Shown: positions 8,076 through 37,101, counted from the stretch's first letter. The stretch: 64,000 nt of DNA from an uncultured Ignavibacteriota bacterium (GCA_903884005.1 CAISDA010000072.1:25284-89283), one strand, 5' to 3'. Program-made: numbers and translations. The notes: a model not told the origin generated them from the sequence alone.

Positions 8076-8124
8076 ACGTACCGCTTTCAAATTTTGATAA
8101 CGAGTCAGTTCATGCTGCCGGACC

Positions 8125-11933: not shown

Positions 11934-11984
11934 CGTTTATCGCACGAGATTGTAAACGATACATTTCCTTTCACACCTAATCGA

Positions 11985-14256: not shown

Positions 14257-14267
14257 TCGTGAGCGGC

Positions 14268-15134: not shown

Positions 15135-15230
15135 ACAATATACGCATCCGCGGCCATTTTGCAAGTCGGCACGATGTTGGGTATATTTATTTACTAAAGA
15201 CATTCACATTACATTCAAGGCGGCACGGAC

Positions 15231-18245: not shown

Positions 18246-18268
18246 TGCGATGCGTATCACACTGCTGA

Positions 18269-18328
18269 CCCCCGGCACAAGGTGCCGGGGGTTTATTAAA
18301 AAGCCCTCTTTCGAGGGCTTTTTTTTAT
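18269..18328. terminator. Tandem, bidirectional rho-independent terminators between the convergent polA (+) and FG-GAP gene (-).
   Basis: Hairpin 1 CCCCCGGCAC-AA-GGTGCCGGGGG (18269–18291), then TTTATT. Hairpin 2 AGCCCTC-TTTCG-GAGGGCT (18302–18319), followed by T8 on the + strand and by TTTTTAATAAA on the minus strand. The minus-gene stop TAA (18327..18325) lies in the T-run. Confidence 0.65.
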
Positions 18329-21300
18329 TTCACAAGCATCATTTTACGGACCTGCGTGAAACGAACGTTTGGATCGGTGAGACCGACTGCTTCGATGCGG
18401 TAGAAATATACACCGCTCGCGGCATGTGCGTTCCACACGGCCTCATGCCAGCCGCCGGATTGTTCCGCACTCACAAGATCTTCAACGAGCTGACCGAGCG
18501 TATTATAAATTTTAATTGATACGCGTCCGGCGGACGGCAATCCGTAGCGAATCGTGGTCGACGGATTGAACGGATTGGGATAATTTTGGGAGAGTGCAAA
18601 CTCCGTCGGCGTTAAAGGGACTCCATTCTTCTGCAGATAGGAATTTGAGCCAATGACGAGCCGGTACCGCACTTCCTCCGAACTCTGAGGAACAGGTATT
18701 GCCTGAAGCTGCCTCAGATCGTATGATGCGGACGACAGCACATTATACAGATAGACTTCGTCGTTCGGCATCGACTGCATTCCCTCGGCATGCAGATATG
18801 CCTCAGCCGCCGCTTTGTTGTGGAGGAGAAGATCGAATATCTGACCATCCCCCACTTCCTTTCTGTGGTCGATGAACAGACGCGTTGCAGGCATATACGG
18901 CGACTCGTTATCGATGACGATACTTGCCGATGCGAAGGTCGTCGGGGGCGCAAAATAATCTTTCACATCATAATCCGTGCAGGATGTTGAATCGAACCCG
19001 GCATACACGGAAGCGACTTCCCTTCCCATTGATGACAGCGACAACCGGATTGCACGGTCGCTGACGTACGGAACGGCATCCAGTTCACGGTCGGTTTTGT
19101 AAAAGGATCCCGCGGGATCGTATGGAAGCAACAGAGACGGCGCGTTGCCAATATTGAGGAAATAATACGCGGTAAAAGGGATCATGGTGGACGCTTGCAC
19201 CCATGCCCCGCTTTTCCAATCGTAAATGACCGCATTAGCCGATAATGCATTGAGTTTGACCACCTCGCTCCACGTAACAGACTTTTCGTAGGGACTGGCA
19301 ATAATATTCCAGCCTGGCTGCACATTCACAGAATACAGACCGGTAGACGTCGTGACATTCGCTGCATTGCCGGAAACGATGAATCCCTTTCTGCTGAGCG
19401 CCCAAAATCCCTTGCCGGCTCCGAAGTCGAATGCGGACGATCCATCATATTCAATGAAATTTGCGGAGACCCCATTATCGCGATACATTCTCCAATCGGT
19501 CTTATACTCGCCCGGCAGCACCGATGCCGCCCCATGCGGTGTGGCTCCGGGAATGCTGACCAGTTTGTAACTCATCGGATTGTCCGGAGTGGAAAATGTG
19601 ATGGTTCTCGTGACGTCGATTGTTTGAGGAATGACCACGATACGCACTTCAATGGGAATGTTCACCGGTGCACTCACGGCATTATGTGTAATGGCAATGG
19701 CCGCGTTATACGTTCCTGCAGTGAGAGTCTGTGAACTATTTTGCTGAAGAGTGATGAACGACGATGTGCCTCCCGCCACGGACAATACTGTGCCCGATGT
19801 CAGTTGCAGCAATGGCGTACCGCTGTATGAAACTGTCCCGGTCAAGGTCTGTTGGCCGCTGTTTGAAATAGTGATGGAGACGGAAGACAATGTGCCCGTC
19901 GTTCCGTTTTTCATGATGAGAATTGAAGCAGGTGCAACAGCGATCGTCGCAACACTGCCTGTTGCTTTGCCGGTGCCTGATAATGCCACGAATGACGGGC
20001 TGCCGGTTGCATTGTGTACAATTGTTAGCGTGTCCTTATATTGTACCGCAAGGGCCGGTGTGAATGTAATGATGATACTGTCGCTGGCGTGAGCAGGAAC
20101 GCCCAACGAAATTTTATTTAATGTAAACACGGAGTTTGTTTGAAGGGATGCGGTGACGGTGAGAACAGCATCGCCGGTATTCGTGACGACCAGTGTTTTT
20201 TTGGACAGTGCGCCGAGAGCAACCGTATCAAATGCCAATGACTTTGCAGAGAGAGCGATCGTCGGTGCTGCAGTGTTGAACGTTTTTGCGCTGTCTTCAT
20301 TCGACGGGGACGACTCACCTGCGCTATTGACTGCTGTAACCCGATACCAATAAATCGTATTCTGATTCAATCCTATGTTAGCGTAACTCGTCTGCGACGC
20401 GCTCGCGGAATCGATCTTTACATATCCTGTACCGGAAGATGCAGAACGGTAGATCCGGTACGATGCAGGCGAGCCCGTTGCGCTTGATGTCCACGTAAGA
20501 TTGACCTGAGATTGCGAAACAGCGGCGGCCAACAGTGTCGTTGGCGCGGCCGGCAGAAATACAGCCGGAGTGGCGATCGTATTCCGAAGCACCGATACGG
20601 CATTGGCGCCATAATTTGCAACAGCCACGTCCGGTATGCCATCTCCGTCAACATCACCGATGGCGGCCGCATACGGAGCTTTCCCTGTAACGATATCCAT
20701 CTTCGCAGCGAATGAACTGGCAATGATGTGACCGGGAATGATGGAGCCGATATTGCTCCGATTCATGAGAATCGAAATTGTATTGCCGCCATTGTTTGCA
20801 ACGACGATATCCGGTCTATCGTCGCCATCCAAGTCACCAAGGGCAACGCAATAAGGAGTAGTCCCCGTGGCGAAATCAACTTTTGCAGCAAATGACCCCG
20901 CGGTCATGGAACCGGAAGTCCCGGTGTTTGAAAAAACAGAAACGGAATTGCTCCCAAAATTTGATACGACCACATCGGCCTTGCCGTCGCCGTCCACATC
21001 ACCGATCGCAACACTATAGGGATTGACTCCTGCAGTCAATTTCACAGCGGCGGCGAAGGACCCTGCAGTGATGGAGCCGGAGGTGCCGACATTTCTATAC
21101 ACAGCAACAGCGTTGCTGCCGCCCCACAGGGTTACGGCTATATCCGGTTTGCCGTCGCCATCGATATCACCGACGGCAATCCCTTGAACATTGCCGCCCG
21201 CGGCAATGTCCACCTTCGGAGCAAACGAGCCGATACCAAGTGAACCAGGGCTGCTTATATTCCTGAACACAGAAACGGAACTGCTACCATAGTTACCGAC

Positions 21301-23067: not shown

Positions 23068-23071
23068 CCCA

Positions 23072-23890
23072 TTATTTTTTAACAACCTGAATCTGAGCGC
23101 TCGCGGAACATCGCTGATCCACACGGATCTTCGCGAGCCAGGTGTTATATTCGAGCAGCGTGATAAATTCTTTTTTGCTGTTCATGCCACCGCAGGGAAC
23201 ATTGTCACTCGTCACGATCGCGATAATAAATTCTATCGCTCGTTCGCCGTCTCCGCCTTCCAGGTCCAATACGTACGAATACGGTTTCGACTGGGGAGGA
23301 ATCTCGACCTCCACATTGGCCATGATGCGGTTGTCTTTTGTTTTCGGCAGCAATGGATGAGGATAGAGAATAAAGCAGGAATCGTTTTTAATCTGGAACA
23401 AGGATAGGTATCCGCTTTTTGAGGAACGAATGGTCAATTGCAGGTCTTCCCCTTCAACATAGGATTGTTTGTCTGTGTGCACTTGCACTTCAAACGTATT
23501 GTCCGTTTCACCGAGCGGCAATTCTATCAGGGCTTCAACATAGACAATGATTTGCGGAAGCTGGACGCCGTTCACGTCGATAAACGCGCTGGTGATTTTC
23601 AGATTTCGTTCTTCAACAATGATGCCCCGGGTGTCACATTGAGCGAATGCGCCGTACATATCCACAGCGAGTCTGCCAACGTCACCCTGCAATCGAACCT
23701 GCGTCGAATGGATTGCAATTCCGGCTTGCTGCAGCACATTCACACGCGCCTGCTGCAGTGCGCGCTGCCGAAGCTGTGACGGACTTTCGTTCTCGCTGCC
23801 GACGACTGTTGCTCCTCCCTTAAACCACTGCTGTGAAAAAAGAGAGGAAGCAAAAAGGAGAGTCACACAGAGTACCGTTCTCATGTTCAT
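23072..23890 (-). CDS. Secreted protein with LPP20-like N-region and DUF4384-like C-terminal beta-domain.
   Basis: Signal peptide. The segment LTIRSSKSGYLSLFQIKNDSCFILYP resembles the DUF4384 core often fused to caspase-domain proteins. ATGA overlap with the caspase gene upstream. Confidence 0.45.
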   Translation of the reverse strand: MNMRTVLCVTLLFASSLFSQQWFKGGATVVGSENESPSQLRQRALQQARVNVLQQAGIAIHSTQVRLQGDVGRLAVDMYGAFAQCDTRGIIVEERNLKITSAFIDVNGVQLPQIIVYVEALIELPLGETDNTFEVQVHTDKQSYVEGEDLQLTIRSSKSGYLSLFQIKNDSCFILYPHPLLPKTKDNRIMANVEVEIPPQSKPYSYVLDLEGGDGERAIEFIIAIVTSDNVPCGGMNSKKEFITLLEYNTWLAKIRVDQRCSASAQIQVVKK

Positions 23891-25629
23891 TTATACTCGA
23901 CAAGTATTTGCGATTCATCCCCGAAAAATTCCGGAGTCTGCAGGCCGCTTTTTTTACGCGACGTTTCAATAACGTTGGCAATGACATACTCTTTCAATTC
24001 GCCGAGTGTGACTTTCCCGTCCTTGTTTTTATCCGCTTCGCCCTTTAATCCGGCAGTCACATAATAGGTAAAGAGCCCCATTTCGGCTTCATCGAAACCG
24101 AGAGAGGTTTCGTCGCTGGTCGAAGAATTAATGACGGTAAAATTATTATAGGATTCCCAGGGGCGGTTAATTTTCAGCCTGATCCCCTTTTGTCCCGTCA
24201 GGTTGGCAAGCAGCGTGTTCTGAGTTTTTCTCGCCGCACCGCTGAAGCAGGCATCGAGTATGACGGTAACGGTGCGAGCATTGAGTCTGTTCAGGTCGGC
24301 ATAGAATTTTGGCAGCGAGTACGCTCTATTTTCCAGGTTCGAAATCTTCCCATCGCTGGGAAACAGATACGTCGTCTCGCCGGTTTTATCCGGAATGCCG
24401 TGGCCGGAATAAAAAACAAACACATCGGTTTCATTTTTTTTAATAGCGGAAGCCAGCTCGCCCGATAGCGGATTAAAGATATCATCCATCCTTGAATATG
24501 TCACTTCGTCGTTTTTCAGCACAATGATCTGTTCCACACCGAGCACTTTTTTAAAATATTCAGCCATCACGGTCGCATCGTTGGCGGCGAAGGGCGCCGG
24601 CGCGATATCCTTATATTGTTCGACGCCGATCACCACACCGATGGAATGTGCCCGTTTGGATATGCTCTGACCGACATTCCGGATATCAATCACGTTGTCC
24701 ATATTCGCCTTGAACTTATTGGACAGTTCAAATTTGGCGAACGTTTTTTTCACGTTGTCGAGGCGCGGTTTCACCTCGACAATATTTTGCGCCATTGGCG
24801 GCTGATCGATTTTTAACGGCAATTGATACCCCTCGAGGCGGCCTTCAAGTTCATCATTGCGCAGGGTCAGAAAGAGCGGCAGCTTGTCCTTAATATCAGC
24901 CATGCGCTGCGCGGAGGGAGTCGTAATTTTAAATGTAAATTCCTTCCATTCGCCGGGCTGCATGGTGCCGAGCACGCCGCTGGCCTGTTCGATGCGAATG
25001 CTTTGATGAGTATTTTCAAGTGAATACGTCACATTGGGGGCCGGTGACTGTCCGACATTCTGCACAACGACGCGGATGTAGACACGTTCTTTCGGATGCA
25101 ACTGGCCATCCGCTTTTTTTACATCCACGTCCTCCCCTACTTCGATCACTTCCAGTCCGGCACACTGCAGTTTAGGCGGATCGTATGCCAATGTCGGCAG
25201 AATGAGGTATGCAGGGTCCATGTCCTGCATCGAACCATTCTCGGTGACGAGAATTTCAATTTTATTTTCTTGTGTTTTGATCTGTTTCGATGCGGAGATG
25301 GAGAACTCGAGCCTGACTGAGTCGGCCGGCGCCAGGATATTCACTTGCTTTGGATCCGATATTTTTAGTTCCGGGTCAGGAACAAGGTTATTAACAGCAA
25401 CCAGAATACCCTGGGCTTTTGATTTACCCTTATTCGTGATCGTCAAAATAATTTTCCCGGACTCACGGTTTTCCAGAATTTTATTTCCGTTACTGTCGAT
25501 GAAATCGATCGTGGCATAGAGGTCTGGCAGGCCGCTTTCGGTGAATGAGAATTTTTTACTTCGTACTTGCGCCGACAGTATGCCACAGAACAACATCGCG
25601 AAGATGGCAATATGGATGACTTTATTCAT
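23887..25629 (-). CDS. Caspase-family (peptidase C14) protein with signal peptide, two CARDB/Ig-like N-terminal domains and a C-terminal EF-hand/dockerin-like Ca-binding loop.
   Basis: Caspase His/Cys dyad contexts: HSIGVVIGVEQYKD...VFYSGHG (His) and VILDACFSG (Cys). C-terminal DKNKDGKVTLGELKEY loop. N-terminal hydrophobic leader. Confidence 0.8.
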   Translation of the reverse strand: MNKVIHIAIFAMLFCGILSAQVRSKKFSFTESGLPDLYATIDFIDSNGNKILENRESGKIILTITNKGKSKAQGILVAVNNLVPDPELKISDPKQVNILAPADSVRLEFSISASKQIKTQENKIEILVTENGSMQDMDPAYLILPTLAYDPPKLQCAGLEVIEVGEDVDVKKADGQLHPKERVYIRVVVQNVGQSPAPNVTYSLENTHQSIRIEQASGVLGTMQPGEWKEFTFKITTPSAQRMADIKDKLPLFLTLRNDELEGRLEGYQLPLKIDQPPMAQNIVEVKPRLDNVKKTFAKFELSNKFKANMDNVIDIRNVGQSISKRAHSIGVVIGVEQYKDIAPAPFAANDATVMAEYFKKVLGVEQIIVLKNDEVTYSRMDDIFNPLSGELASAIKKNETDVFVFYSGHGIPDKTGETTYLFPSDGKISNLENRAYSLPKFYADLNRLNARTVTVILDACFSGAARKTQNTLLANLTGQKGIRLKINRPWESYNNFTVINSSTSDETSLGFDEAEMGLFTYYVTAGLKGEADKNKDGKVTLGELKEYVIANVIETSRKKSGLQTPEFFGDESQILVEYK

Positions 25630-25641
25630 GGTAGTGTCCCT

Positions 25642-26205
25642 CTAATTTGGCCGTGCAACGCCGATCGCCGGAATTCCTGCAACCGCCGTTTGACCCGGTG
25701 TATCGACGCTATTTTTGCCTCCGAGAAGCAATACTGCGGCAGCGCCGCCGGCTGCGGCACCGATTCCGACCCATGCCCAGGGGAACGAATTTTGTTCGAT
25801 TTTACGAACGGTCAGGTCAAAGCGGTAATCATTCCCTTTTAAGTCTTTGAGAATATCCTGTTTATAGTTCCACACGATCGAATTATTTTTTCCGGAAAAC
25901 GATCCAACGCCAATTTTCCCCATGATGTGCCGGGGAATGATGCGAAAGTTCGGGTCACTTTCACGGACCAGGACCAATGATACTTCAAATTCGTCGTCCT
26001 GCGAACCGTTGATGTAGTAGTATATTTCAAACACTGCATCGGTCTTTTTGACGTCGATGATATCATACAACGGAGAAATTTTATTCTGTGCCATTTGGGC
26101 GTTCTCCCGCATAGCATCGACGTTGATGCCGTTATTTTGCGGAAAGGCCTGGAAGGTAAAAACTGCCATGAGCAGCCATACAGCATGGTAGATGCGAACA
26201 TTCAT
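25642..26205 (-). CDS. Hypothetical secreted protein with a C-terminal Gly/Ala-rich hydrophobic anchor; first gene of the caspase operon.
   Basis: Signal peptide MNVRIYHAVWLLMAVFTFQAF. Beta-rich middle region. C-terminal WAWVGIGAAAGGAAAVLLLGG TM-like segment. 12-nt gap to the caspase gene. Confidence 0.5.
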   Translation of the reverse strand: MNVRIYHAVWLLMAVFTFQAFPQNNGINVDAMRENAQMAQNKISPLYDIIDVKKTDAVFEIYYYINGSQDDEFEVSLVLVRESDPNFRIIPRHIMGKIGVGSFSGKNNSIVWNYKQDILKDLKGNDYRFDLTVRKIEQNSFPWAWVGIGAAAGGAAAVLLLGGKNSVDTPGQTAVAGIPAIGVARPN

Positions 26206-26785: not shown

Positions 26786-27535
26786 TTATTTCCGCCCGAA
26801 CCAGTCCAGCAGTCCCGTAATGAATGTGAGCGGGTGCGGCGGGCAGCCTGGTATGAATAGGTCAATGGGATGCTGTTCGAGGAACTCGCGGTTCACTTCC
26901 ATGGAATCCTGGAAGATGCCCCCGGAGACGGCGCAGGCTCCGACGAGGATCACGATTTTCGGAGACGGCACGGCATCGTAACAGATGAACGCCGCATCGG
27001 CCATAGCCTTGGTGATCGGGCCGGTGATGACAATACCGTCCGCATGGCGGGGTGAAGCGACAAATTCGATGCCGAAACGTCCCATATCGAAATTCACATT
27101 GCTCAATGCATTCAACTCCGCCTCGCACCCGTTGCACCCGCCCGCCGATATCTGACGTAGTTTTAATGAGCTGCCGAAATATTTCCGGATCTGCTTCGAG
27201 GCAAGCTCAGGCGTGATTCTCTTCTGCGATCCGTCGACGACCAACTGGCTGCGTGTGCTGCACGCGATGTGGTATTCGTTAGTGAAATGTATGGCCTGTT
27301 CGGGACATTCCTGTTCGCACAACGGACAAAAGACGCACAGCCCGAGATCGACCTTCAGGGGATTCAGCTGTATCGCGTGCGTCGGGCACACAGACTGGCA
27401 TGTGCCGCAGCCATCCGGACATGTTTCGGGATGGAGGGCGGGCATGCCGCGAAAGAGCGGCGGCAGTGAGGCATGATGAACGTCGTGAACGATCGGGTCG
27501 CCCTGCAGCACACGGAGGTGAATGCTTTCAATCAT
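26786..27535 (-). CDS. Fused 2x[4Fe-4S] ferredoxin (HycF/NuoI-like) and NuoB/HycG-like small subunit of a group-4 hydrogenase/complex-I-related module.
   Basis: N-terminal CPDGCGTCQSVCP and CVFCPLCEQECP motifs. C-terminal NuoB-like GGCNGCEAE, VGACAVSGG and PGCPPHP cysteine motifs. Confidence 0.8.
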   Translation of the reverse strand: MIESIHLRVLQGDPIVHDVHHASLPPLFRGMPALHPETCPDGCGTCQSVCPTHAIQLNPLKVDLGLCVFCPLCEQECPEQAIHFTNEYHIACSTRSQLVVDGSQKRITPELASKQIRKYFGSSLKLRQISAGGCNGCEAELNALSNVNFDMGRFGIEFVASPRHADGIVITGPITKAMADAAFICYDAVPSPKIVILVGACAVSGGIFQDSMEVNREFLEQHPIDLFIPGCPPHPLTFITGLLDWFGRK

Positions 27536-27547
27536 AACTCTCCTTTG

Positions 27548-29032
27548 TTATAAATCGTGTCCGGCGTAGGACAGGTCAAAGCTTTTGTTGATCAGTGGGA
27601 AATCGGAGATCGCCACGCTTCGCATCGCGAGCGCCAGGCCGTACCAATTATGAAACGACGGATCCTTGATCTTATAGCGCGTGAACGCGCCGGCGGCATC
27701 GGTGAAGGCACAGTGGGCAATTTCACCCCTCCACCCCTCGACGAGGGAGATAACACCGCACTCGGGCAGCATATCGGCCAATGGACCGATCACAGGACCG
27801 GGGGCTAGATTTTCCAGCTGATCGAAAATAAATTGGAGCGATTCGTCTATTTCAAAAGACCGCATGCGCGTCCGCGCGAAGACATCGCCTGTCGACAGCG
27901 TGATGAGCGGAAGATGTGTATACCGGTACGTGCCGTACGGAAATTGGCTGCGCGTATCGATCTCTATGCCGCACGCGCGCGCTGCCGGTCCGACCATCCC
28001 GATCGATCGCGCCCACTCTTTCGTGACGACACCCGTCTGGTCGAGCCGTGAGATGACGCTCGTGGATTCGATCATCACACGATTGATCGCGGCGATATCG
28101 TTCTGCACAACGCGCAGATTGTCCTGGATGCGTTCGAGCGCCTCGTCCGCGGGATCGAACCGAAGTCCGCCCGGAGTGATAAAACCGCGCCCGAAGCGGG
28201 AGCCGCACAGAAGCGCGGAGCTGTTGATCACGAGAGTCCGCAGCCGCCCGTACGACGACGCACCGATGGCGTATCCGATATCGTTGCCAATGCCGCCCAG
28301 GCCTGCAAGGTGCATCGCGATGCGTTCAAGTTCTTCGGCGATCGTGCGGAGAACCTGCGTCCGCAGGCTGACCGTGGCGTGAGACAGTGCCTCGATGGCG
28401 AGCGTGTATGCCATCGTATGGCCGATCACCGTGTCTCCGGCGATCGATTCGCACAGAATGTTCCGCTGCCTCGCATCTGCAGCAAGCAGCATTGCCTCTA
28501 TGCCGCGATGCTGGTATCCGAGACTGATCTCGAGATGGTATACTTCCTCGCCATGGCACTGAAAACGGAAATGGCCCGGTTCGATGATGCCTGCATGTAT
28601 CGGCCCGACGGCAACCTCGTGAACCTCTTCGCCTTCCATCGCATACAGTGAATACGGCTGATCGCCCAGCACCGTCGTCTGTTTCCGCACGGGACGCAGC
28701 CAGGGATGGCCAACGGGGATGACATGGTGATTCTCCGCGAGTTCACATTCGAAATAATGCGTCTGGGGATATTCCCCCGCGAAGCTCGCGAAATGATTTT
28801 CCGTCGGCGTGAACGTTGTGCCTACCAGGTGTATCGACGATGACAATCGGTTGGCCAGGACTGCGATGACCGTTCCGGGAGACGCCGATGGGTCCATTCC
28901 GAACAATCCGATCATTCGCGAATGCGCCATCAACAGTTCGCGCACCGACGCCTCGAATTCGGCAATGGAGACGATGGGAATATCGCCGATCGCAAACGGC
29001 TGATGATTTTGTACCGACAAAGAGATCATAAT
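27548..29032 (-). CDS. Fused NuoC/NuoD-like large subunit (HycE/HyfG-like) that lacks the [NiFe]-ligating cysteines (Ehr-type).
   Basis: NuoD/large-subunit signatures (GPIHAGIIEPGHFRF, LEISLGYQHRGIE). The L1 position reads LCESIAGDTVIGH (no CGxC) and the C-terminal L2 position reads DPSFHNW instead of DPCxxCxxH. I trimmed the start to the ATG at 29032 to exclude the upstream repeat element. Confidence 0.8.
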   Translation of the reverse strand: MMISLSVQNHQPFAIGDIPIVSIAEFEASVRELLMAHSRMIGLFGMDPSASPGTVIAVLANRLSSSIHLVGTTFTPTENHFASFAGEYPQTHYFECELAENHHVIPVGHPWLRPVRKQTTVLGDQPYSLYAMEGEEVHEVAVGPIHAGIIEPGHFRFQCHGEEVYHLEISLGYQHRGIEAMLLAADARQRNILCESIAGDTVIGHTMAYTLAIEALSHATVSLRTQVLRTIAEELERIAMHLAGLGGIGNDIGYAIGASSYGRLRTLVINSSALLCGSRFGRGFITPGGLRFDPADEALERIQDNLRVVQNDIAAINRVMIESTSVISRLDQTGVVTKEWARSIGMVGPAARACGIEIDTRSQFPYGTYRYTHLPLITLSTGDVFARTRMRSFEIDESLQFIFDQLENLAPGPVIGPLADMLPECGVISLVEGWRGEIAHCAFTDAAGAFTRYKIKDPSFHNWYGLALAMRSVAISDFPLINKSFDLSYAGHDL

Positions 29033-29071
29033 AGTGGATATTAGTAACTCAGCGTACACAAAATAGCCCCT

Positions 29072-29155
29072 GTCATTCTGAAGGAGCTCGAGCGACTGAA
29101 GAATCTCGCCGGGTGCTAACACGATGCAAGATTCTTCGCTTGCGCTCAGAATGTC
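29072..29155. repeat. Inverted pair of a short dispersed repeat (long variant GTCATTCTGAAGGAGCTCGAGCGACTGAAGAATCTC plus inverted short variant GACATTCTGAGCGCAAGCGAAGAATC).
   Basis: 29072–29107 (forward) and 29129–29155 (reverse) in the intergenic gap between Hyf-like genes. The same family recurs at 34301–34325 and 34387–34420. Confidence 0.55.
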
Positions 29156-29212
29156 AGAGTACTTATGTCATATGCATGAAGATTCTTGACGCAGGCGAGC
29201 GAACAGCCCGCC

Positions 29213-30670
29213 CTACAGGACAATCCCGAAATCTTTAGATATCTGAACGACCGTTGCGTATAATTGCGCCGGCATGCCGACGCCAAGCGCGACCAGTGCT
29301 GCAAGCAGCACGATCGACGCAAAATGCATGATGTCGAATTTTTCGGCCGGGATCTCCGCCTGCACCGCATCCGAAGGCGGAGCGGCGTAGAGCATGCGGA
29401 ACACGGTTTTGCTCATGCCGACGAATATAAAGAACAACAGGAACATCACGCCCGCGAGCAGCCACGGCCTGGACATCAGTCCCTGGAAGATCATCAACTC
29501 GCTGAAAAAGATGCCGAAGGGCGGCATCGCAATGATGGCGAAGAACCCCGCAAGGAACAGCCACCCTGTCCACGGCATCGCGTTGAGCACGTTCCAGACC
29601 GAGGACACTTCGCGCGAGCGGTATGACCGATGGATATTGCCCGCATTGAAGAACAGCACCATTTTGGTGAGCGAGTTGAACACAGTATGAAGCATCGCTC
29701 CGACAAATGCGATGCCACCGGTGCCGATGCCGAGCGTGATGAGCCCGAGGTGCTCAACGCTCGAATACGCGATCATGCGTTTGTAATTAACAACCTTGAA
29801 CATGAAGACGAACGCGACGAAGAGCGAGAACATGCCGCCGATGACCATGATTGTGCGGGCGAATTCGGCCGTCGCCGTCGGCACCATAATTTGATAAATG
29901 CGGAGCACGCCGATGAGTGCCGTGCCCCTGAGCGAACCCGACATGAGCGCTGCAATGGGGCTCGGGGCATTGCTCGTGGCATCGATGTCTCCGGGATGCA
30001 TCGGGGCGATGCCGATCTTGGTGCTTAATCCGACTAAGACAAAGATGAAGCTTGCCTTGAGCCAGATAGGATTCAGGAGGACCGAATACCGGGTGTACGT
30101 CGAGATCAGCAATTGCTGCCCGGCGATCGCGGTGCCGCTGGCAGAGAGCGTGAGAAAGAGCAATCCGATGAATGCAAACGCGATGCCCACGGACACCAGG
30201 AAGAGATATTTCCACATCGCCTCGAGCGATTCTTCATCCGCGTAATAATAGATCAGCGGGGCGACGCTGAGCGTGGTGGTTTCGGATGCGACCCAGAACA
30301 ATCCGAGGTGGTTGCTGATGAGCGCCATCGTATTGGCGAACAGGAACAGGTTCAGCATCATGAAATACAGCCGCTTCCCCGATTCTTCGTTCACCAGCGT
30401 CGGGCGGTTGAGGTACGAATAGGACACGAGCACGACCCAGAAATAGACGTGCGAGAGGATCAACAGAAACAGCCGGCTCAGCGCATCGAAGCGAATAAAT
30501 TCATTGTCCGCCGGATGCACGACGCCGGAAAAAATGAGGAACGAAACACCGAGATGCAGGCCGGCGATCAGCAGCGAGATGCCGAATTGCGCTTTTCTGC
30601 TGCGAAGCAGATAATTGGCCCCGATGCCGATCAATGGCAGTCCAAGCAAAATAATGAGTTCGGTCATCAA
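29213..30670 (-). CDS. NuoN/NuoM/HyfF-like proton-translocating antiporter-type membrane subunit.
   Basis: 485 aa, about 14 TM helices, complex-I antiporter-like subunit pattern. 4-nt overlap with the upstream gene. Confidence 0.8.
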   Translation of the reverse strand: MMTELIILLGLPLIGIGANYLLRSRKAQFGISLLIAGLHLGVSFLIFSGVVHPADNEFIRFDALSRLFLLILSHVYFWVVLVSYSYLNRPTLVNEESGKRLYFMMLNLFLFANTMALISNHLGLFWVASETTTLSVAPLIYYYADEESLEAMWKYLFLVSVGIAFAFIGLLFLTLSASGTAIAGQQLLISTYTRYSVLLNPIWLKASFIFVLVGLSTKIGIAPMHPGDIDATSNAPSPIAALMSGSLRGTALIGVLRIYQIMVPTATAEFARTIMVIGGMFSLFVAFVFMFKVVNYKRMIAYSSVEHLGLITLGIGTGGIAFVGAMLHTVFNSLTKMVLFFNAGNIHRSYRSREVSSVWNVLNAMPWTGWLFLAGFFAIIAMPPFGIFFSELMIFQGLMSRPWLLAGVMFLLFFIFVGMSKTVFRMLYAAPPSDAVQAEIPAEKFDIMHFASIVLLAALVALGVGMPAQLYATVVQISKDFGIVL

Positions 30671-31299
30671 TCTTTTAGCCTTCCAAGAACGCTCACATCC
30701 TGTTGAGTGAATGTGGAACGGATCTTATTGATCGTGATACCCATGAGGAACACCACCACGAAGACGTCCAGCATGGCGCCGAGTTCCACGATGGTGGGCA
30801 TTTCGCCTGCGACGGAGGTTCCAAAGAGGAAGATGCCGTTCTCCAGGATCATAAAACCGACGACATGGACGATGAGCTTTTTCCTGAAGATGATGATATA
30901 GATCCCGACGATGATTGCCGAAAAGGCGGAAGCAAACGGGATCGGTTCGATGGGCGTGAAGCCGGAGAGCACATGGGCCGAGACGAACATGACGGACATC
31001 GACGCGACGGTGAGCAGAAGAAAGTTGAACGGCTGGATGCTCGGCTCGACGATGCGTTTCACATCGAGATCGATCACGATTTTATTGATGAACCGCGGAA
31101 TGATGACCGCCTTCACGATGAACGATGTGATCGGGATGATAAGGATGTGCACCGACAGATGGTTGATGAACGGGAACACCATGATCGCCGAAAGCAGTAT
31201 GCCCTGCGTGCGCAATATCGACACGTATGTTTTGAGCCGGGATGTGACGACGATATACAGCAGCGTCAGGCAGAACAAAATACTCAGTACATTTTCCAT
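30667..31299 (-). CDS. HyfE-like small membrane subunit of hydrogenase-4/complex-I-related module.
   Basis: 210 aa with 6–7 TM helices; a size and topology match to HyfE; sits in the HyfE position. Confidence 0.65.
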   Translation of the reverse strand: MENVLSILFCLTLLYIVVTSRLKTYVSILRTQGILLSAIMVFPFINHLSVHILIIPITSFIVKAVIIPRFINKIVIDLDVKRIVEPSIQPFNFLLLTVASMSVMFVSAHVLSGFTPIEPIPFASAFSAIIVGIYIIIFRKKLIVHVVGFMILENGIFLFGTSVAGEMPTIVELGAMLDVFVVVFLMGITINKIRSTFTQQDVSVLGRLKD

Positions 31300-31315
31300 T
31301 GCATTTGTTTTTCGG

Positions 31316-32245
31316 TTATTGGCGGACGAACGTGTAAATAAGCAAATTGAGAATTCCGATCGCAGTCGCGAACAGCAGATACTGCGGAATGCTCTTCATC
31401 TTAAAGCGCGCGATCATCGTTTCCACCCACGCAATGAGGGCCGTGAGCAGCAGCAGCATGACAATAAACACCGAAAACCCCAGCCAGGGATTCTGCATGC
31501 TGAACGGATTGAAGAACGATGCCTCATAGATCGCATAGATCATGATCTTGATAAAGCTCGAATACTGATAGAGGAAAAGGTCGATCCCCGAATTGTCGAG
31601 GATCATCACTTCGTGGATCATTGTCAGTTCCAGGTGCGTGTTCGGATCGTCGATAGGCATGCGCGAGCATTCGGTCATCATCAGGAAGAACGCTGAGATC
31701 GAGCTGACGATGATGAACACGAGCGATGTCGGATTATCGAGCCGTATGGAATGGTAGATATCATAGATCGACGTGTGCCCGCTGATGAACGCCAGGCTGC
31801 CGAGCGTGAAGAAATAGATGGGTTCGGCAAAGACGGCAAACGTGGCTTCGCGCGCGGCGCCCATGCCTTCGAACGAGCTGCCGATATCCATGGCCCCGAG
31901 AATTTGGAAGAAGCGCGCGAGGCCGAGCAGGTAGGCGAACACGATGATATCGCCGTTGAAGCTCAGGATCGGTTTCACATAGCCGATCGGCAGCATGAGG
32001 CTCGAGATGAGAACAGCGGCGAATGCGACGACCGGTGCCAGACGGCTGACGAACGACGCGGTCACCGCATAGATCGTCTCTTTCCGAGTGAGCCGGAGCA
32101 GGTCAAAGTACGGCTGCCAGAGCGGGGCGCCGATTCTGCCGGTGAGCAGAGCCTTCTGCTTGTTGATCAGGCCCACCAGCAGCGGCGAGATGCCGAGGAT
32201 GAACAGGAATGGGAACAGTCCCTGGATATTTAAAAATATGTCCAT
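31316..32245 (-). CDS. NuoH/HyfC/HycD-like membrane subunit (complex-I subunit-1 family).
   Basis: 309 aa, 8 TM helices, NuoH-like conserved charged residues. Overlaps the upstream gene by 16 nt. Confidence 0.8.
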   Translation of the reverse strand: MDIFLNIQGLFPFLFILGISPLLVGLINKQKALLTGRIGAPLWQPYFDLLRLTRKETIYAVTASFVSRLAPVVAFAAVLISSLMLPIGYVKPILSFNGDIIVFAYLLGLARFFQILGAMDIGSSFEGMGAAREATFAVFAEPIYFFTLGSLAFISGHTSIYDIYHSIRLDNPTSLVFIIVSSISAFFLMMTECSRMPIDDPNTHLELTMIHEVMILDNSGIDLFLYQYSSFIKIMIYAIYEASFFNPFSMQNPWLGFSVFIVMLLLLTALIAWVETMIARFKMKSIPQYLLFATAIGILNLLIYTFVRQ

Positions 32246-34257
32246 ACGATCGCGACTCCGCCGTACACCAGTACGACAATTAACATAAATAAAATATAGT
32301 ACCGAATATCCGTTCGGCTCAACGATTCAATTGCGCCGGCCCTGTCGACGATGGCATGATAGAGCGGCGCGACGAACGTCTCTTCCGAAAAATCTCCGGC
32401 GTGGGAATCGAATTTCGACCGTTTTGGAAAAATCGTTTCCGGAGCCGATGTGTGCGTGCGCAGATGAAGCGTCGCGGCTGCGATGCTGTTGATCTCATCG
32501 GCAAACGACGATGCGGTATACTGCATTTTCGGAGTCTGCCGGCGATATCCGCAGGCCCATGCAGGCGCCGCGCGCCGGCGAGCGCCGATCGTCTTCGCGG
32601 CAAACACGCATCCGATCGCAGCGAGAACGCTCACGAACACGAGCGTCAGCATGTTCCATTGCGCGAAGATCGTGTACGGCTGCAGGGCGATGCCCCATCG
32701 GTTATTTGCAATAACGGAAGTAATGATCCCGAGCACCGGCTGGGGATAAATGCCGAACAAAATGCAGAGCAGCGCGGGAAACCCCATTGCGGCATAGTCG
32801 GCCGCTGTCACGGTGAATGCGCCGAGACTGCTCCGTTCGGTTCCGAGGAACATCACGCTGTCGATCTTCGTGAAACAGGCGAGCGCCAAACCGCCGACGA
32901 ATGCCAGGCCGACGGCCATGACCAGCATGAACAGCGGGAAATATTTTCCGAGCGCCGATGCCGATTCGAAGAACCCCTTGAAGATCAAAAATTCGGACAT
33001 GAACCCGTTCAGCGGAGGCAGGCCGCTGATGGCCAGGGTTCCGACGAGGAACAACGCCGTGAACCATGGCGCGCGATGAACGATGCCGCCCATGCGTTCG
33101 ATATCGCGCGTGCCGAAATTCTGATAGATGACGCCAGATCCGATAAACAACAGAGTCTTGAAGATGGCGTGGTTGAACGTATGGAACAATGCGCCGCCAA
33201 ATCCCAGCCAGATAAGCGACTGGACCGAATACGAAATGCCGATGACGCCGGTGCCGATACCGATGCCGATGATGCCGATATTTTCGATGGAATGATATGC
33301 CAGCAGTTTTTTTATATCATGCTGCGCGAGCGCGTACCACACGCCGAAGATGGCACTGAACACGCTGACGACCATGATCAGGATGCCGATCCATGCAGGC
33401 AGCGGAGAACAAAATTCTATCACCCGGAAGATCCCGTAGATGCCGGTCTTAATGATGACTCCGGAAAGAAACGCGCTCAGCACCGTGGGTGCAATGGGAT
33501 GCGCCCATGGGAGCCAGAAATGGAACGGCATGAATCCCGCCTTGATGCCGAAGCCCAAAAATCCTAGTCCGCACACGCCGTAAAAAAGAAGCCCCAGATC
33601 GGGAGCGATATGGAAGTCGGTGAAGAACCAGCTGCCCGCATGCGCATGAAGCATGAAAAAAAAGACATATAGGATGAACGTCGCCATGTGCGTCGTTGTG
33701 AAATAGATGAAGCTTCCCTTCTGCACTTCCTCCTTCTCCTTCTCCAGGAGCATGCCGAGATACGCCGCGAGCGTCATTAGTTCCCAGAAGACAAGGAAGA
33801 CAATCGCATGATTTGCGAGGACGACCAACTGCGTCGCCAACAGCAGCAATGAGAATGACACGAGGAACGCGCGGACCGCCGCCCCCCTGCCCAGATGCTG
33901 CTGAAGGTACGAATGTGCTGAGATGATCGTCGGCACGGCAACGGTCGTGACGACAAGAAGGAAATAGAGCGCAAGCCCGTCTGCCCGGAAGAACGGTTCA
34001 CACCAGGGAATCGAAGGTATCAGTGGATAGACCGAAGGAAGCGAGACGATGCGTTCGATGGAAAAGCCTGCATTCATGACGAGTCCGGGAACGACCGCGG
34101 CGACGAACAGCGTCAGCGCGCGCCCCAACGGGCGGACAGTCGCTGCGATGACCGCACCGGCGATAATGAAACCGCACCCGAAAAGAAAGACAGCGTCCAT
34201 AAGAAATATTTCACTAATGATCGTAACGTCCGATAATCCTTGTCCTGAGGTATTCAT
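32230..34257 (-). CDS. NuoL/HyfB/HyfD-like antiporter-type membrane subunit (second copy).
   Basis: 675 aa. NuoL-family motifs (WLPWAHPIAPTVLSAFLSGVIIKTGIYG, IENIGIIGIGIG). Confidence 0.8.
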   Translation of the reverse strand: MNTSGQGLSDVTIISEIFLMDAVFLFGCGFIIAGAVIAATVRPLGRALTLFVAAVVPGLVMNAGFSIERIVSLPSVYPLIPSIPWCEPFFRADGLALYFLLVVTTVAVPTIISAHSYLQQHLGRGAAVRAFLVSFSLLLLATQLVVLANHAIVFLVFWELMTLAAYLGMLLEKEKEEVQKGSFIYFTTTHMATFILYVFFFMLHAHAGSWFFTDFHIAPDLGLLFYGVCGLGFLGFGIKAGFMPFHFWLPWAHPIAPTVLSAFLSGVIIKTGIYGIFRVIEFCSPLPAWIGILIMVVSVFSAIFGVWYALAQHDIKKLLAYHSIENIGIIGIGIGTGVIGISYSVQSLIWLGFGGALFHTFNHAIFKTLLFIGSGVIYQNFGTRDIERMGGIVHRAPWFTALFLVGTLAISGLPPLNGFMSEFLIFKGFFESASALGKYFPLFMLVMAVGLAFVGGLALACFTKIDSVMFLGTERSSLGAFTVTAADYAAMGFPALLCILFGIYPQPVLGIITSVIANNRWGIALQPYTIFAQWNMLTLVFVSVLAAIGCVFAAKTIGARRRAAPAWACGYRRQTPKMQYTASSFADEINSIAAATLHLRTHTSAPETIFPKRSKFDSHAGDFSEETFVAPLYHAIVDRAGAIESLSRTDIRYYILFMLIVVLVYGGVAIVWTYF

Positions 34258-34300
34258 CTAGACTAGGGTCAAGAATCTTCGTGCACACAACTACATCACC

Positions 34301-34420
34301 GTCATCCTGAGCGAAGCGAAGGATCTAAAATGGTGATTGCCAGTAGTAGCTATAAATACATGCTGCCTGATGTCATGAGCATTGTAGATTCTTCGGTCGC
34401 TCGAGCTCCCTCAGAATGAC
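34301..34420. repeat. Inverted pair of the same dispersed repeat (GTCATCCTGAGCGAAGCGAAGGATC forward; long variant reversed at 34387–34420).
   Basis: Short variant 34301–34325. Reverse-complement long variant GATTCTTCGGTCGCTCGAGCTCCCTCAGAATGAC at 34387–34420, two mismatches versus 29072–29107. A poly-C9 tract follows at 34445–34453. Confidence 0.55.
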
Positions 34421-34459
34421 ATGGCACAGTACATACAGTGAGTTCCCCCCCCCTTTTAA

Positions 34460-36436
34460 TCAGATCTGGAACGCCAGGAACAGATAGAGCAGCAGGGCTA
34501 TGATTGAAAACGTCACATACACCTGGATCTTGCCCGACTGAAGCCATTTGAACCATTCCACGAGCCAGGACACGAACGCGCCCGCGGGTTCGACGAACCT
34601 GTTGAGCACAAGATCCGCCGCGTTCGTGCGGAACGAACTCGTTGCGGGCAGAGGAATTTCCGGCAGGTGAATATCGTGGTGCACATTCAACGCCTTCCCT
34701 GCAATGTTCACGATATCGTCGGAGAAGGATGTTCCCGAATACTGCATACGCGCAGTGAGTGCCGTGTATCCACAGCCCCATGGAACGCTCGTGCGCACGG
34801 AACGGCGCGCGGCCAGCCTCGTTTTGGCGATCATCATAAGCGCAATGACAATGATCACTGCCACCGCGATCGTTCCGACCGATGTGATCGTTCCCACGGA
34901 CGACGACCATGACAGCCCTTGTGACAATGGGAAAAGATCCCGATACACTGCCTCGCACCAGCCAACAACGATCTGCGGAAATAATCCAAGGACGAACACA
35001 GCCAGTGCAAGAGCGGACAGGGTTACGAGTTCATACTTCGTGATGTGAACATCGTGTTCGGGAGGCCGTTTGGGAGAGCCGAGGAAGACCATCGACATGA
35101 TTTTTGAGAACGCGACAACAGCCAATCCGCCGACGAATGCCAGGGCAACGGCGGAAGTGAGCATGAAGAATGGGAAATACAACGAGAGGGATCGGGAAGC
35201 CTCGAAGAAGCCGCTGTATATCAAAAACTCGGAGGCGAAGCCGTTGAGCGGAGGAAGTCCGCAGATGGCAATGGAGCCGATGAGGACGATGCCGCCGAAG
35301 AGCGGCGCCGATTTCATCAAGCCGCCCATGAGTTCGATATTGCGGTGATGATAATGGTGGTAAATTGTTCCGGCACTCATGAACAGCAATGATTTGAAGA
35401 CAAAATGGTTCGCCGTATGGAAGAGCGCCCCGGCGAGTCCGAGGAACGTGAGCAGCGGCTGCTGGTGCTGCAGCCCAAACATCATGAGCGAGAGCCCGAT
35501 GCCGATGATGCCGATATTTTCGATCGAGGAATAGGCGAGCATTCGTTTGAGGTCTTTTTGGGCGAGCGCATTCCAGATTCCGAAGATCGCCGTCGTGCCG
35601 GCAATGAACAACAGCGAGGCCGGAATAAAGTAATCGATCGGATGCGTCCATGTGATGACGCGAATGAGTCCATAGATGCCGGTCTTCAGCATGACGGCGG
35701 ACAGCACCGCCGAGATGTGGCTGGGTGCGACCGGGTGCGCTTCGGGAAGCCAGAAATGAAACGGCATGAATCCGGCTTTCATGCCGAAGCCGATGAAGCC
35801 GAACCAAAATATTGTTGTGATCGCAGACGGCAGGTACGCCTGATGTGTGAACGCTGAAAATTCCCAGCTGTTGGTCTGCTGATGGAGCAGAAGGAACATC
35901 AGGTACAGAAAGAGCGTGCCGACGTGCGCAGCCGCAAAGAAAATGAAACTGCCGCGCTGCACTTCCTCCTTTTCACGCTCGAAGACGATCCCGACATAGC
36001 CGGCGAGCGCCATGAGTTCCCATGCGGCCAAAAACAGCAGCGCATGGTTGGCGATCACGATGACCTGCATCGACAAGAACAACACGGCGGTTGCAGCGAT
36101 GGTCGGTTTCAGCGAGCGGGTCTGTTCGTAGTGAGAGAGATATCCGATGCCGTAGATGGAAGACACGATCCCTCCGCACTGGATGAGGCCGAGGAAGAAG
36201 AGCGAGAGCTTATCGAACGACAGTGAAATAGTCCCGAGGCTCGGGTGCGCGAAGAGCACGATCACCGGGGGTGTCGGGAAAAAAAATGCGCGCGTTGTAA
36301 ACGCAAGGCCGCAGGCCGTGGCGGCTGCGATCAGCCCATGTGCGGCGCGATTGAGGACGAATTGGCTGCGGGAAACGGCAATGACGATGATCGCAAGCGC
36401 GAGCAGCATGCAGTCCGCGACAAAAAATTCAATCAT
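34460..36436 (-). CDS. NuoL/HyfB-like antiporter-type membrane subunit (first copy).
   Basis: About 658 aa. Motifs WLPEAHPVAPSHISAVLSAVMLKTGIYG and IENIGIIGIGLS. Start ATG forms an ATGA overlap with the upstream regulator gene. Confidence 0.8.
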   Translation of the reverse strand: MIEFFVADCMLLALAIIVIAVSRSQFVLNRAAHGLIAAATACGLAFTTRAFFFPTPPVIVLFAHPSLGTISLSFDKLSLFFLGLIQCGGIVSSIYGIGYLSHYEQTRSLKPTIAATAVLFLSMQVIVIANHALLFLAAWELMALAGYVGIVFEREKEEVQRGSFIFFAAAHVGTLFLYLMFLLLHQQTNSWEFSAFTHQAYLPSAITTIFWFGFIGFGMKAGFMPFHFWLPEAHPVAPSHISAVLSAVMLKTGIYGLIRVITWTHPIDYFIPASLLFIAGTTAIFGIWNALAQKDLKRMLAYSSIENIGIIGIGLSLMMFGLQHQQPLLTFLGLAGALFHTANHFVFKSLLFMSAGTIYHHYHHRNIELMGGLMKSAPLFGGIVLIGSIAICGLPPLNGFASEFLIYSGFFEASRSLSLYFPFFMLTSAVALAFVGGLAVVAFSKIMSMVFLGSPKRPPEHDVHITKYELVTLSALALAVFVLGLFPQIVVGWCEAVYRDLFPLSQGLSWSSSVGTITSVGTIAVAVIIVIALMMIAKTRLAARRSVRTSVPWGCGYTALTARMQYSGTSFSDDIVNIAGKALNVHHDIHLPEIPLPATSSFRTNAADLVLNRFVEPAGAFVSWLVEWFKWLQSGKIQVYVTFSIIALLLYLFLAFQI

Positions 36437-37101
36437 CGGTGTACTTGCCCCTCGCATTGTTCAATGACCGAGATCAATTGCGGATACGGCAGGCGCTGTT
36501 CCAACGCCAGTTGAATTTCTTTTTTCGACAGCAGCAGACTGATGTGCGCCAATAGACTTAAATGCTGCTTGATCGTCTGTGAAATGATGAGGATCAGCGT
36601 ATGCACCGGTTTTCCGTCGAGCGAATTGAGGTTGAGGAACCGGGACGGGAAGAAGAAATGGATCAGTGGTTTTTCGCGCCCGATGACAAGCGGGATGCGA
36701 GGATGGGGCAGGCTGATCCCGTTGCCGATCGCGGTGGTCATTAATTGCTCGCGGCTCTTCAGCAATTGTATCACCACGTCCCGGTCGACAGTCGGATCGA
36801 ACGAGGCCATGTGCGTCATTTGTTCGATATACCCGTCCTCGGTGAAATCGCAATTGTAGAACACCGATTCTTCGGTCAGCAGCGGCAGCAGGCTGCCGAT
36901 ATGGTACTCCTGGAAATGGGAGTTTCCGGAAAGATTGAGTGGAAGACTCTTGTCCAGTGCCCATTCGATAATTTTTTCTTTATTGAAAATTATTCTATCC
37001 TGGATGATCTGGTGAGGAATCCCCTTGGCCTTCACTAATTTTTGTATTTCTTTTTCGGAAAGCAGCAATAACTGTGCAATATCTTTAATTCGTAAATCCA
37101 C
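36433..37101 (-). CDS. Putative transcriptional regulator: N-terminal excisionase/MerR-type HTH (HTH_17) fused to a PTS EIIA type-2 (PtsN/EIIA-Ntr-like) domain.
   Basis: HTH segment DLRIKDIAQLLLLSEKEIQKLVKAKGIPHQII. EIIA_2 segment with phospho-His context TAIGNGISLPHPR and a C-terminal LLSKKEIQLAL region. GTG start at 37101 after an AAAGG RBS-like motif; the long N-terminal extension in the track is Arg/Cys-rich junk. Confidence 0.55.
   Translation of the reverse strand: MDLRIKDIAQLLLLSEKEIQKLVKAKGIPHQIIQDRIIFNKEKIIEWALDKSLPLNLSGNSHFQEYHIGSLLPLLTEESVFYNCDFTEDGYIEQMTHMASFDPTVDRDVVIQLLKSREQLMTTAIGNGISLPHPRIPLVIGREKPLIHFFFPSRFLNLNSLDGKPVHTLILIISQTIKQHLSLLAHISLLLSKKEIQLALEQRLPYPQLISVIEQCEGQVHR

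Follow-up and report, generated by a model that had tools for sequence, protein, structure and literature searches.

An Ehr-type Locus with a Rebuilt [NiFe] Pocket in an Uncultured Ignavibacteriota Bacterium

In a 64,000-nucleotide stretch of DNA from an uncultured Ignavibacteriota bacterium (GCA_903884005.1, CAISDA010000072.1:25284-89283; hereafter the window), eight co-directional open reading frames (ORFs) on the minus strand (26786-37101) form a real and intact operon, encoding a regulator followed by the seven subunits of a Hyf-like membrane complex, as an earlier note on this DNA had described. All four cysteines that would ligate a NiFe center are missing from its large subunit. The sequence evidence supports membership of the locus in the known energy-converting-hydrogenase-related (Ehr) family in its original sense, because its gene set and order are those of Geobacter sulfurreducens GSU0739-45. 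We lean toward the view that it encodes a Geobacter-type Ehr complex that is ferredoxin-fed and ion-translocating, has a polar pocket in place of the NiFe site, and is gated by a regulator in which a helix-turn-helix (HTH) domain is joined to a phosphotransferase system (PTS) enzyme IIA (EIIA) domain.

Loss of the NiFe Ligands in the Large Subunit

In residue-level phmmer alignments to solved structures, SIAGDTVIGH of the EhrL-like large subunit is paired with the L1 motif RVCGICGFAH of HycE, with alanine and threonine in place of the two cysteines, and the reading of L1 in the earlier note was thus right. That note had placed the L2 motif at KDPSFHNW, but these residues align with RAATYANW of HycE, a motif other than L2, and the true L2 is formed by the last nine residues of the protein, DLSYAGHDL-stop, opposite DPCYSCTDR of HycE (C to S and C to G). 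The HycE alignment reaches the end of the protein, setting ...GSLDPCYS(CTDR) against ...KSFDLSYAGHDL-stop, where the bracketed CTDR lies past the printed alignment and is what we take to be the HycE continuation. A-G-D-T of L1 and S-Y-A-G of L2 also appear in alignments with MbhL and with seven cysteine-bearing relatives. The claim that both Cys pairs are gone therefore survives the misplacement of L2, since the L1 and L2 columns hold none of the four cysteines when compared with HycE and MbhL. The large subunit ends where the mature hydrogenase C-terminus would, and has no C-terminal maturation peptide.

The gene is not a frameshifted pseudogene, a possibility raised earlier: no frameshift was found, and 120 listed homologues of 492-493 amino acids align over 100% of the large subunit. 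The best matches are metagenome-assembled genomes (MAGs) of Bacteroidota/Ignavibacteria-like bacteria, and automated pipelines label the homologues "Ni,Fe-hydrogenase III large subunit." The Pfam family PF00346 is matched at 3.9e-37. HycE is the best match both by sequence (1e-37) and by fold (E 2.7e-19, TMq 0.72, 502 columns, AlphaFold model), followed in the fold search by the fused NuoCD of E. coli and Aquifex. The AlphaFold model, with a mean pLDDT (predicted local distance difference test) of 71 and values of 80-96 in the N-domain, was used solely for fold assignment. The N-terminal 130 residues are NuoC-like, and PF00329 was detected in 31 of 39 family members. Asp139 of complex I is kept as Asp251.

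A Pocket Rebuilt Alike Across the Family

A HMMER search of cluster representatives (50% identity) returned 5,515 clusters at E<=1e-3, of which the best 150 were examined. The NiFe cysteines are absent in 144 of these 150, and they are replaced alike. The former first Cys is Ala or Ser in 122 of 140 cysteine-less clusters, the former second (201) Thr or Ser in 115 of 139, the former third (488) Ser in 120 of 129, and the former fourth (491) Gly in 121 of 128. Asp200, between the two Cys positions of L1, is Asp in 130 of 140 cysteine-less clusters, with Ala, Val, or Ser at this position in cysteine-bearing relatives. Asp457 is kept in 117 of 133, whereas in the seven cysteine-bearing relatives this position is Ser (six) or Ala (one); the residue (window 27664-27666) sits inside KDPSFHNW, the motif earlier mistaken for L2. 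Judged from the alignments, the surroundings of the former NiFe site have gained two acidic residues, Asp200 and Asp457. In 123 of 127 clusters the chain stops exactly at L494, with an Asp-Leu end that matches the mature hydrogenase C-terminus, and the hydrogenase-type proton-relay Glu151 (IEPGHFRF loop) is retained in 122 of 132. The pocket signature of the family (144 clusters) is thus A/S-G-D-T/S, L-S-Y-x-G-x-D-L-COOH, and the extra Asp.

We considered an alternative cysteine site and rejected it: no cysteine is universal in the large subunits (C159, C276, C481, and C490 are found in 45-67% of family members), so there is no hidden thiolate site. At position 490, which is Cys in 45% of the family, the large subunit studied here has Ala.

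Both CxxC pairs survive in seven of the best 150 representatives. In a rough neighbor-joining tree (279 columns, without support values), the query lies deep in the cysteine-less radiation; the seven cysteine-bearing sequences lie beside it, with one nested inside, and all are nearer to each other than to HycE, MbhL, MbsL, and Nqo4. This agrees with published trees that put Ehr beside group 4f hydrogenases (PMC10284858) and with a published comment that cysteines are retained in a few "Ehr" large subunits (PMC3569383).

Redox Arm, Membrane Subunits and Selection

The EhrS-like small subunit has all 8 ferredoxin-type and all 4 NuoB-type cluster cysteines, each kept in 60-70 of 72 orthologues; those of the proximal [4Fe-4S] cluster (C134, C137, C201, and C231) are kept in 67-70 of the 72. 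In the membrane, the first of two HyfB-like subunits (A1) holds the Glu of transmembrane helix (TM) 5, the Lys residues of TM7, TM8, and TM11, and the Glu of TM12 that belong to antiporter-like subunits, and its best match in the Protein Data Bank (PDB) is HycC (7z0s_C, 6e-56). The same Glu/Lys motifs are directly legible in the sequences of the second HyfB-like subunit (A2) and of the EhrD-like subunit. For the EhrB-like subunit, phmmer against the PDB found MbhM (9e-22) and HycD (1e-21), while no complex I NuoH was reached at 1e-5.

Against a syntenic, 82%-identical relative (L087; dS 0.6-1.0), the ratio of nonsynonymous to synonymous substitution rates (dN/dS) is 0.03-0.14 for all eight genes, for example, 0.11 for the large subunit, 0.06 for the regulator, and 0.03 for both the EhrB-like and EhrC-like subunits. 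The operon genes are under strong purifying selection, and this is not a decaying hydrogenase. Further, Ehr subunits have been detected as protein in G. sulfurreducens, where they were more abundant on formate (PMC7894505).

Operon Organization

In the direction of transcription, the genes encode the regulator, A1 and A2, a HyfC-like, a HyfE-like, and a HyfF-like subunit, a NuoCD-like large subunit (L), and a small subunit (S) in which NuoI and NuoB are fused (Table 1). Pfam and NCBIfam models upheld the domain contents read earlier, namely HTH_17 with PTS_EIIA_2, two Proton_antipo_M proteins, NADHdh, HyfE-like, HyfF-like, Complex1_49kDa, and two Fer4 with Oxidored_q6. Because all matches of the operon to curated Hyf/Nuo equivalog models are far below the cut-offs (667 bits for HyfB), its proteins are relatives and not members of the Hyf/Nuo enzymes.

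Table 1. Genes and intergenic gaps of the Ehr-type operon in the window.
Feature	Position	Strand	Description
Regulator	36433..37101	-	222 aa, GTG start, first gene; PF12728 (HTH_17) N-terminal, PF00359 C-terminal
EhrA-1-like, HyfB/NuoL type (A1)	34460..36436	-	658 aa from Met8; NF005086 HyfB 486 bits
Non-coding gap with palindromic REP/MITE-like element	34258..34459	.	core ~34268-34424
EhrA-2-like, HyfB type (A2)	32230..34257	-	longest ORF 675 aa; NF005086 478 bits
EhrB-like membrane anchor, NuoH/HyfC/HycD/MbhM type	31316..32245	-	309 aa; PF00146
EhrC-like, HyfE type with NuoK-like C-terminal half	30667..31299	-	210 aa; NF008556 HyfE 7.6e-18, PF00420 weakly
EhrD-like antiporter-like, HyfF/NuoN type	29213..30667	-	484 aa; HyfF models 228-260 bits; relatives 483-484 aa
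Second non-coding gap, palindromic element copy in opposite orientation	29033..29212	.	core ~29068-29190
EhrL-like large subunit	27548..29032	-	494 aa; NuoC-like N-domain and NuoD/[NiFe]-large-subunit-like domain; PF00346
EhrS-like small subunit	26786..27535	-	249 aa; NuoI/HyfH-like 2x[4Fe-4S] and NuoB/HyfI-like; PF00037, PF01058, NuoI and NuoB models

The longest ORF of A1 begins at 36457, and relatives of 658 amino acids point to a start at Met8; given this start, the regulator stop and the A1 start share an ATGA overlap, which bears out the coupling of the operon to an EIIA(Ntr)-type regulator claimed earlier. For A2, a start at Met20 (34200) is suggested by relatives of 657 amino acids, the length found in L087. 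The A2 and EhrB-like genes overlap by 16 nt, the ATG of ehrD overlaps the stop of ehrC by 1 nt, and L is separated from S by 12 nt, with AAGGAG as the ribosome-binding site. Two gaps of about 200 and 180 nt are the exceptions to these tight junctions.

A repeat search (pairs I1 and I12) found that the two gaps share a palindromic element of ~130-170 nt in opposite orientations, with arms TGTCATTCTGARGGAGCTCGAGCGACYGAAGAATCT ... AGATYCTTCGCTTSCGCTCAGRATG, that resembles repetitive extragenic palindromic (REP) sequences or miniature inverted-repeat transposable elements (MITEs). No third copy occurs in the window, and Rfam gave no family match for the element, only two tRNAs in the window. The equivalent gaps of L087 lack the element, and the D and L genes of more distant relatives have a 4-nt overlap in place of a gap. 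On the operon (mRNA) strand, the D-L copy forms a long, stable hairpin (-46.8 kcal/mol, z = -3.6).

On the plus strand, ORFs of 212-403 amino acids run antisense to the membrane-subunit genes (30703-31341, 30911-31696, and 32356-33567). Their translations are of low complexity with many charged residues, and they are almost certainly artefacts of sense-gene composition.

A Conserved HTH-EIIA Regulator

The earlier note considered control by an EIIA-type regulator unusual. Instead, among loci with sufficient upstream sequence, about two thirds have an HTH-EIIA gene at the head of the operon, across many phyla, which makes it a conserved first gene of Ehr operons. The 4-nt overlap with the first A gene recurs in the three Ignavibacteria-like and Calditrichaceae relatives examined. 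Homologues of the regulator are 222-223 amino acids long; the regulator in the window matches PF00359 at 1.7e-14, and His133 (LPH motif) and His180 are invariant in all 45 of 45 orthologues. Unlike stand-alone PtsN of ~150 amino acids, the regulator has its EIIA domain fused to HTH_17, and it scores only 35.8 bits against the PtsN model TIGR01419 (cut-off 138.7). Database names for its homologues include "PTS sugar transporter subunit IIA" and "nitrogen PTS EIIA." A literature search found no paper on an Ehr-linked HTH-EIIA gene, nor a mention of GSU0738, which we only assume to be a possible Geobacter regulator.

A MerR-family gene overlaps the start of the regulator gene in the close relatives L084 (9610-10017) and L085 (2497-2904), so that a second regulator appears to have been added to the operon there; no MerR gene lies at this position in the window, in which a MerR gene occurs at 48769-49254. 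When the window was aligned to the three genome relatives nearest to it, no conserved operator emerged upstream of the regulator, and a scan of the window for sigma-70 promoters and terminators gave nothing interpretable, with promoter-like hits at the level of shuffled sequence.

Family Membership and Distribution

The Ehr assignment made in the earlier note holds, as the NiFe cysteines are absent and the gene order is that of Geobacteraceae. In G. sulfurreducens, GSU0739-45 are ehrA-1, A-2, B, C, D, L, and S (PMC7894505). A scan of one genome per species, with an 11-sequence alignment as query (a 39-sequence alignment was too diverse), detected relatives in at least 596 species spread over more than ten phyla, including Bacteroidota/Ignavibacteria, Spirochaetota, Verrucomicrobiota, Planctomycetota, Melainabacteria, Gemmatimonadota, Omnitrophota, Riflebacteria, Hydrogenedentota, Myxococcota, and Desulfobacterota (including Geomonas limicola and Geobacter argillaceus). 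Neighborhoods were compared at 80 loci drawn from these species, G. sulfurreducens being outside the 80. The order is Reg-A(-A)-B-C-D-L-S, and it matches in Geomonas limicola (L053), Pelobacter (L040), Geobacter argillaceus (L060), and ~50 other loci. The Geobacter Ehr complex was reportedly described in 2005 by Coppi and in 2013 by Marreiros et al., and Ehr has reportedly been known from genomes since 2005. The locus in the window is an ordinary, typical Ehr member of an already known and very widespread class.

The earlier note had also explained the gene order by a swap of hyfC and hyfD. This does not hold, as both large membrane genes are of the HyfB type (478 and 486 bits, vs. 162-165 bits for HyfD), and the order is explained by duplication of the A gene. 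A1 and A2 are 38% identical; L002-L004, the nearest relatives in the genome collection, have a single A gene, and A2 groups with it. There are two A genes in the window, L087, and Geobacteraceae, and three in L084 (10666-16726); the duplications in Geobacteraceae, Planctomycetota, and Verrucomicrobiota were separate events. Even close Ignavibacteria-like relatives differ in their count of A genes (one to three), so the complex does not have a set number of antiporter-like modules.

A Geobacteraceae MAG (L023) carries two tandem Ehr-like operons (5092-12277 and 13473-20554). With only 33% identity between the query and the large subunit of the second operon, these point to paralogous Ehr subfamilies.

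Genomic Neighborhood

The larger ORFs (~100 amino acids or more) of the whole window were scanned for formate dehydrogenase (FDH), NuoEFG, HyfA-like, and hyp genes, and none was found, in line with the earlier statement that electron-input and maturation genes are lacking nearby. None of these genes is recurrent within 6 kb of the 80 loci either. In Ech and Mbh, whose peripheral arm consists of the equivalents of NuoB, C, D, and I, the NuoI-like subunit is where ferredoxin docks directly. A separate input module would not be needed by an enzyme that takes up ferredoxin as Ech and Mbh do, and its absence is therefore the expected anatomy.

Of the nickel-pincer cofactor genes larBCE reported in the earlier note, larB (3239-3976; NF033503, 298 bits) and the adjacent larC (3978-5222; LarC1 plus LarC2 domains) were confirmed, while neither the larE of that note nor larA was found among the window ORFs scanned. 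A lar-Ehr linkage was rejected, as no lar genes recur near the 80 loci. A distant URO-D/MtaA-like gene (1695-2783) lies ~450 bp from the lar pair on the same strand.

A SulP permease with a STAS domain adjoins the Ehr operon in seven of the 80 loci, from four phyla (L003, 2535-4262; L004; L073, 2330-4237; L068; L075; L045; and L079), in most cases immediately upstream of the regulator and on its strand, and is absent from the window. This neighbor may be a hint about the substrate or ion.

The operon is flanked alike in the window and in L087, by genes for a histidine phosphatase and an adenosine deaminase at one end and by polA, EamA, and amino-acid permease genes at the other. In L087, polA directly follows the small-subunit gene, while the window has an extra block of ~8 kb (18325-26205) that encodes a 1599-amino-acid FG-GAP protein sorted by the type IX secretion system (T9SS), a DUF4384 protein, a caspase-domain (Peptidase_C14) protein, and a 187-amino-acid ORF without a family match. 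Several neighboring proteins bear type IX secretion sorting domains, in keeping with a Bacteroidota/Ignavibacteria-like source. An IS481-like transposase (57092-58045; HTH_32 with an rve_3 integrase core) has as neighbors two T9SS-sorted proteins and a large hybrid histidine kinase rich in PAS domains (60852-63962).

Proposed Function and Alternatives

Taken together, we hypothesize that reduced ferredoxin, the most likely donor, would dock directly on the NuoI-like N-terminal domain of EhrS, since the peripheral arm is built as in Ech/Mbh. Electrons would then pass through the two [4Fe-4S] clusters to the NuoB-type proximal cluster, and an acceptor would be reduced in the remodelled pocket at the interface of L, S, and the HyfC-like subunit, with proton uptake via Glu151. 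The energy freed could drive the export of H+ or Na+ through the HyfC-like and HyfE-like subunits, A1, A2, and D. The HTH-EIIA protein would gate expression, and perhaps activity, with its conserved histidine phosphorylated by a PTS(Ntr)-type relay. Such regulation would tie the pump to the phosphoenolpyruvate (PEP)/pyruvate or carbon/nitrogen state; purely as speculation, the PEP/pyruvate ratio might report the supply of pyruvate to pyruvate:ferredoxin oxidoreductase (PFOR) and hence the load of reduced ferredoxin. In this scheme we infer the ferredoxin donor, the direction, the ion pumped, and the phosphorylation-based regulation. Menaquinone would be the default candidate acceptor in a Bacteroidota/Ignavibacteria-like host, with the reservation that the quinone ligands of complex I are absent.

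To our knowledge, a substrate, ion, or physiological role has never been demonstrated for Ehr complexes, and our literature search found no functional or structural Ehr study. Several points weigh against the ferredoxin-fed pump or its likely acceptor. Tyr87 and His38, the complex I quinone ligands (T. thermophilus Nqo4), align to Gly199 and Ile150, and the NuoH-like subunit, which is of the hydrogenase type, speaks against a canonical quinone site. The pLDDT of the large-subunit model is below 50 at residues 113-175 and 459-494, around the pocket, and no geometry can be claimed from it. Further, no Ehr complex has a demonstrated donor or acceptor (PMC10284858, PMC6349859), and Ehr is present in lineages reported to lack quinone biosynthesis (Riflemargulisbacteria, PMC6349859).

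A bolder version of the ferredoxin-fed pump, which we regard as unlikely, is that the proximal [4Fe-4S] cluster feeds a new catalytic or ion-binding site, free of thiolates, in the pocket, and that Ehr is an unrecognised ferredoxin-driven pump switched by PTS(Ntr) via HTH-EIIA. The site might then consist of the two family-specific Asp residues, the Thr/Ser, the Ser, the retained proton-relay Glu, and the carboxylate of the Asp-Leu end. If true, Ehr would be a ferredoxin-driven ion pump with its own substrate.

An equally improbable alternative is that the complex is a redox-sensing or redox-independent Mrp-like cation/proton antiporter, in which the peripheral arm has ceased to turn over electrons, the Fe-S clusters merely sense the redox state of ferredoxin, and the carboxylate pocket binds a cation or relays protons. 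The gain of two conserved Asp plus Ser and Thr with the loss of the thiolates would suit such a role, as would the lack of recurrent acceptor or partner genes near the 80 loci, the occurrence of Ehr in lineages reported to be without quinone biosynthesis, and the SulP/STAS transporter beside seven of the 80 operons; moreover, EIIA-Ntr proteins classically control K+ and other ion transporters. However, conservation across phyla extends to all 12 cluster cysteines, eight of which belong to the entry ferredoxin domain, and Glu151 and the NuoC/NuoD scaffold are under purifying selection, which exceeds what a sensor would be expected to need.

The complex might also be the membrane module of a formate-linked system whose FDH is encoded elsewhere in the genome, although we find this somewhat harder still to credit. 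Such an FDH-Ehr association has been hypothesised for Riflemargulisbacteria and Saganbacteria (PMC6349859); the greater abundance of Ehr subunits in formate-grown G. sulfurreducens (PMC7894505) also favors it, and the nearest solved relative of the large subunit is the formate hydrogenlyase subunit HycE. However, neither FDH nor a HycB/HyfA-like connector nor a NuoEF-like gene was found among the window ORFs scanned, and none of them is recurrent around the 80 loci.

It is very improbable that the locus is a non-functional hydrogenase relic in neutral drift. The Ehr of Geobacter KN400 has been called non-functional, with ehr mutations read as relaxed selection (PMC13194489, 2026), and the catalytic NiFe ligands are indeed lost. 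By contrast, the low dN/dS across all eight genes, the intact ORFs with full-length alignment to homologues, the identical replacements in 144 divergent clusters, the gene order kept in more than ten phyla, and the detection of the protein in Geobacter (PMC7894505) make a relic reading not tenable for the Ehr family. Finally, a true Hyf-type [NiFe]-hydrogenase with misread motifs, or a recent frameshifted pseudogene of one, can practically be dismissed, as the hyf-like gene set and the hydrogenase name given by pipelines are set against the absence of the four cysteines relative to HycE and MbhL, of any frameshift, and of hyp genes among the window ORFs scanned.

The comparison provides three leads to the function of Ehr: strong purifying selection, a single conserved rebuild of the pocket, and a phosphorylatable HTH-EIIA protein encoded by the conserved first gene, which gives a pointer to when the complex is made. 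Solving Ehr would bridge energy-converting hydrogenases and complex I, and would alter the predictions of energy metabolism for many uncultured anaerobes.

Comparison with Known Systems

The closest known system is the Ehr of Geobacter, with the same seven structural genes in the same order and two NuoL/HyfB-like A genes. Geobacteraceae Ehr large subunits are likewise cysteine-less and are 44-46% identical to that of the window, and an HTH-EIIA gene adjoins the Ehr operon in Geomonas, Pelobacter, and Geobacter loci, as in the window. However, the Geobacter A pair is not orthologous to A1 and A2 but arose by independent duplication, and the regulator, which in the window is co-directional and overlaps the first A gene, is divergent in some Geobacter loci.

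Subunit types and order also correspond to those of E. coli Hyf/Hyc (HyfBCDEFGHI; HycCDEFG, PDB 7Z0S) for HyfB, C, E, F, G, H, and I, and HycE has a fused NuoC-like N-domain like the large subunit in the window. By contrast, the locus in the window is without the NiFe cysteines and maturation peptide and, among the window ORFs scanned, without HyfA, HyfD, HyfJ, FDH, and hyp, and the equivalents of HyfH and HyfI are fused as one protein. The group 4a motifs RxCGxCxxxH and DPCxxCxx(H/R) do not fit its large subunit.

Loss of NiFe ligands with retention of Fe-S and ion-pumping modules is also seen in another group-4 derivative, the sulfane sulfur reducer MBS/MBX of Pyrococcus (PDB 6U8Y), which offers a precedent for new, small-molecule chemistry at the old NiFe site. 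However, similarity to MBS/MBX is much lower (1e-23 for L and 2e-7 for the NuoH-like subunit), its L1 replacement, RICVPEPDVP, is different, and it has an Mrp-type multi-subunit module, whereas the locus is without small Mrp-type subunits. Ech and Mbh share with the locus the minimal peripheral arm (NuoB, C, D, and I equivalents) without a separate input module, but they reduce protons at a NiFe site, which the complex in the window cannot do.

The respiratory complex I has a core homologous to that of the complex in the window, and both have three antiporter-like subunits with the canonical Glu/Lys residues and a proximal N2-like cluster. Unlike complex I, the Ehr-type locus is without NuoA, NuoJ, and NuoEFG, the sole small relative being the HyfE/NuoK-like subunit; its residues at the Tyr87/His38 positions are Gly and Ile, and its NuoH-like subunit is of the hydrogenase type.

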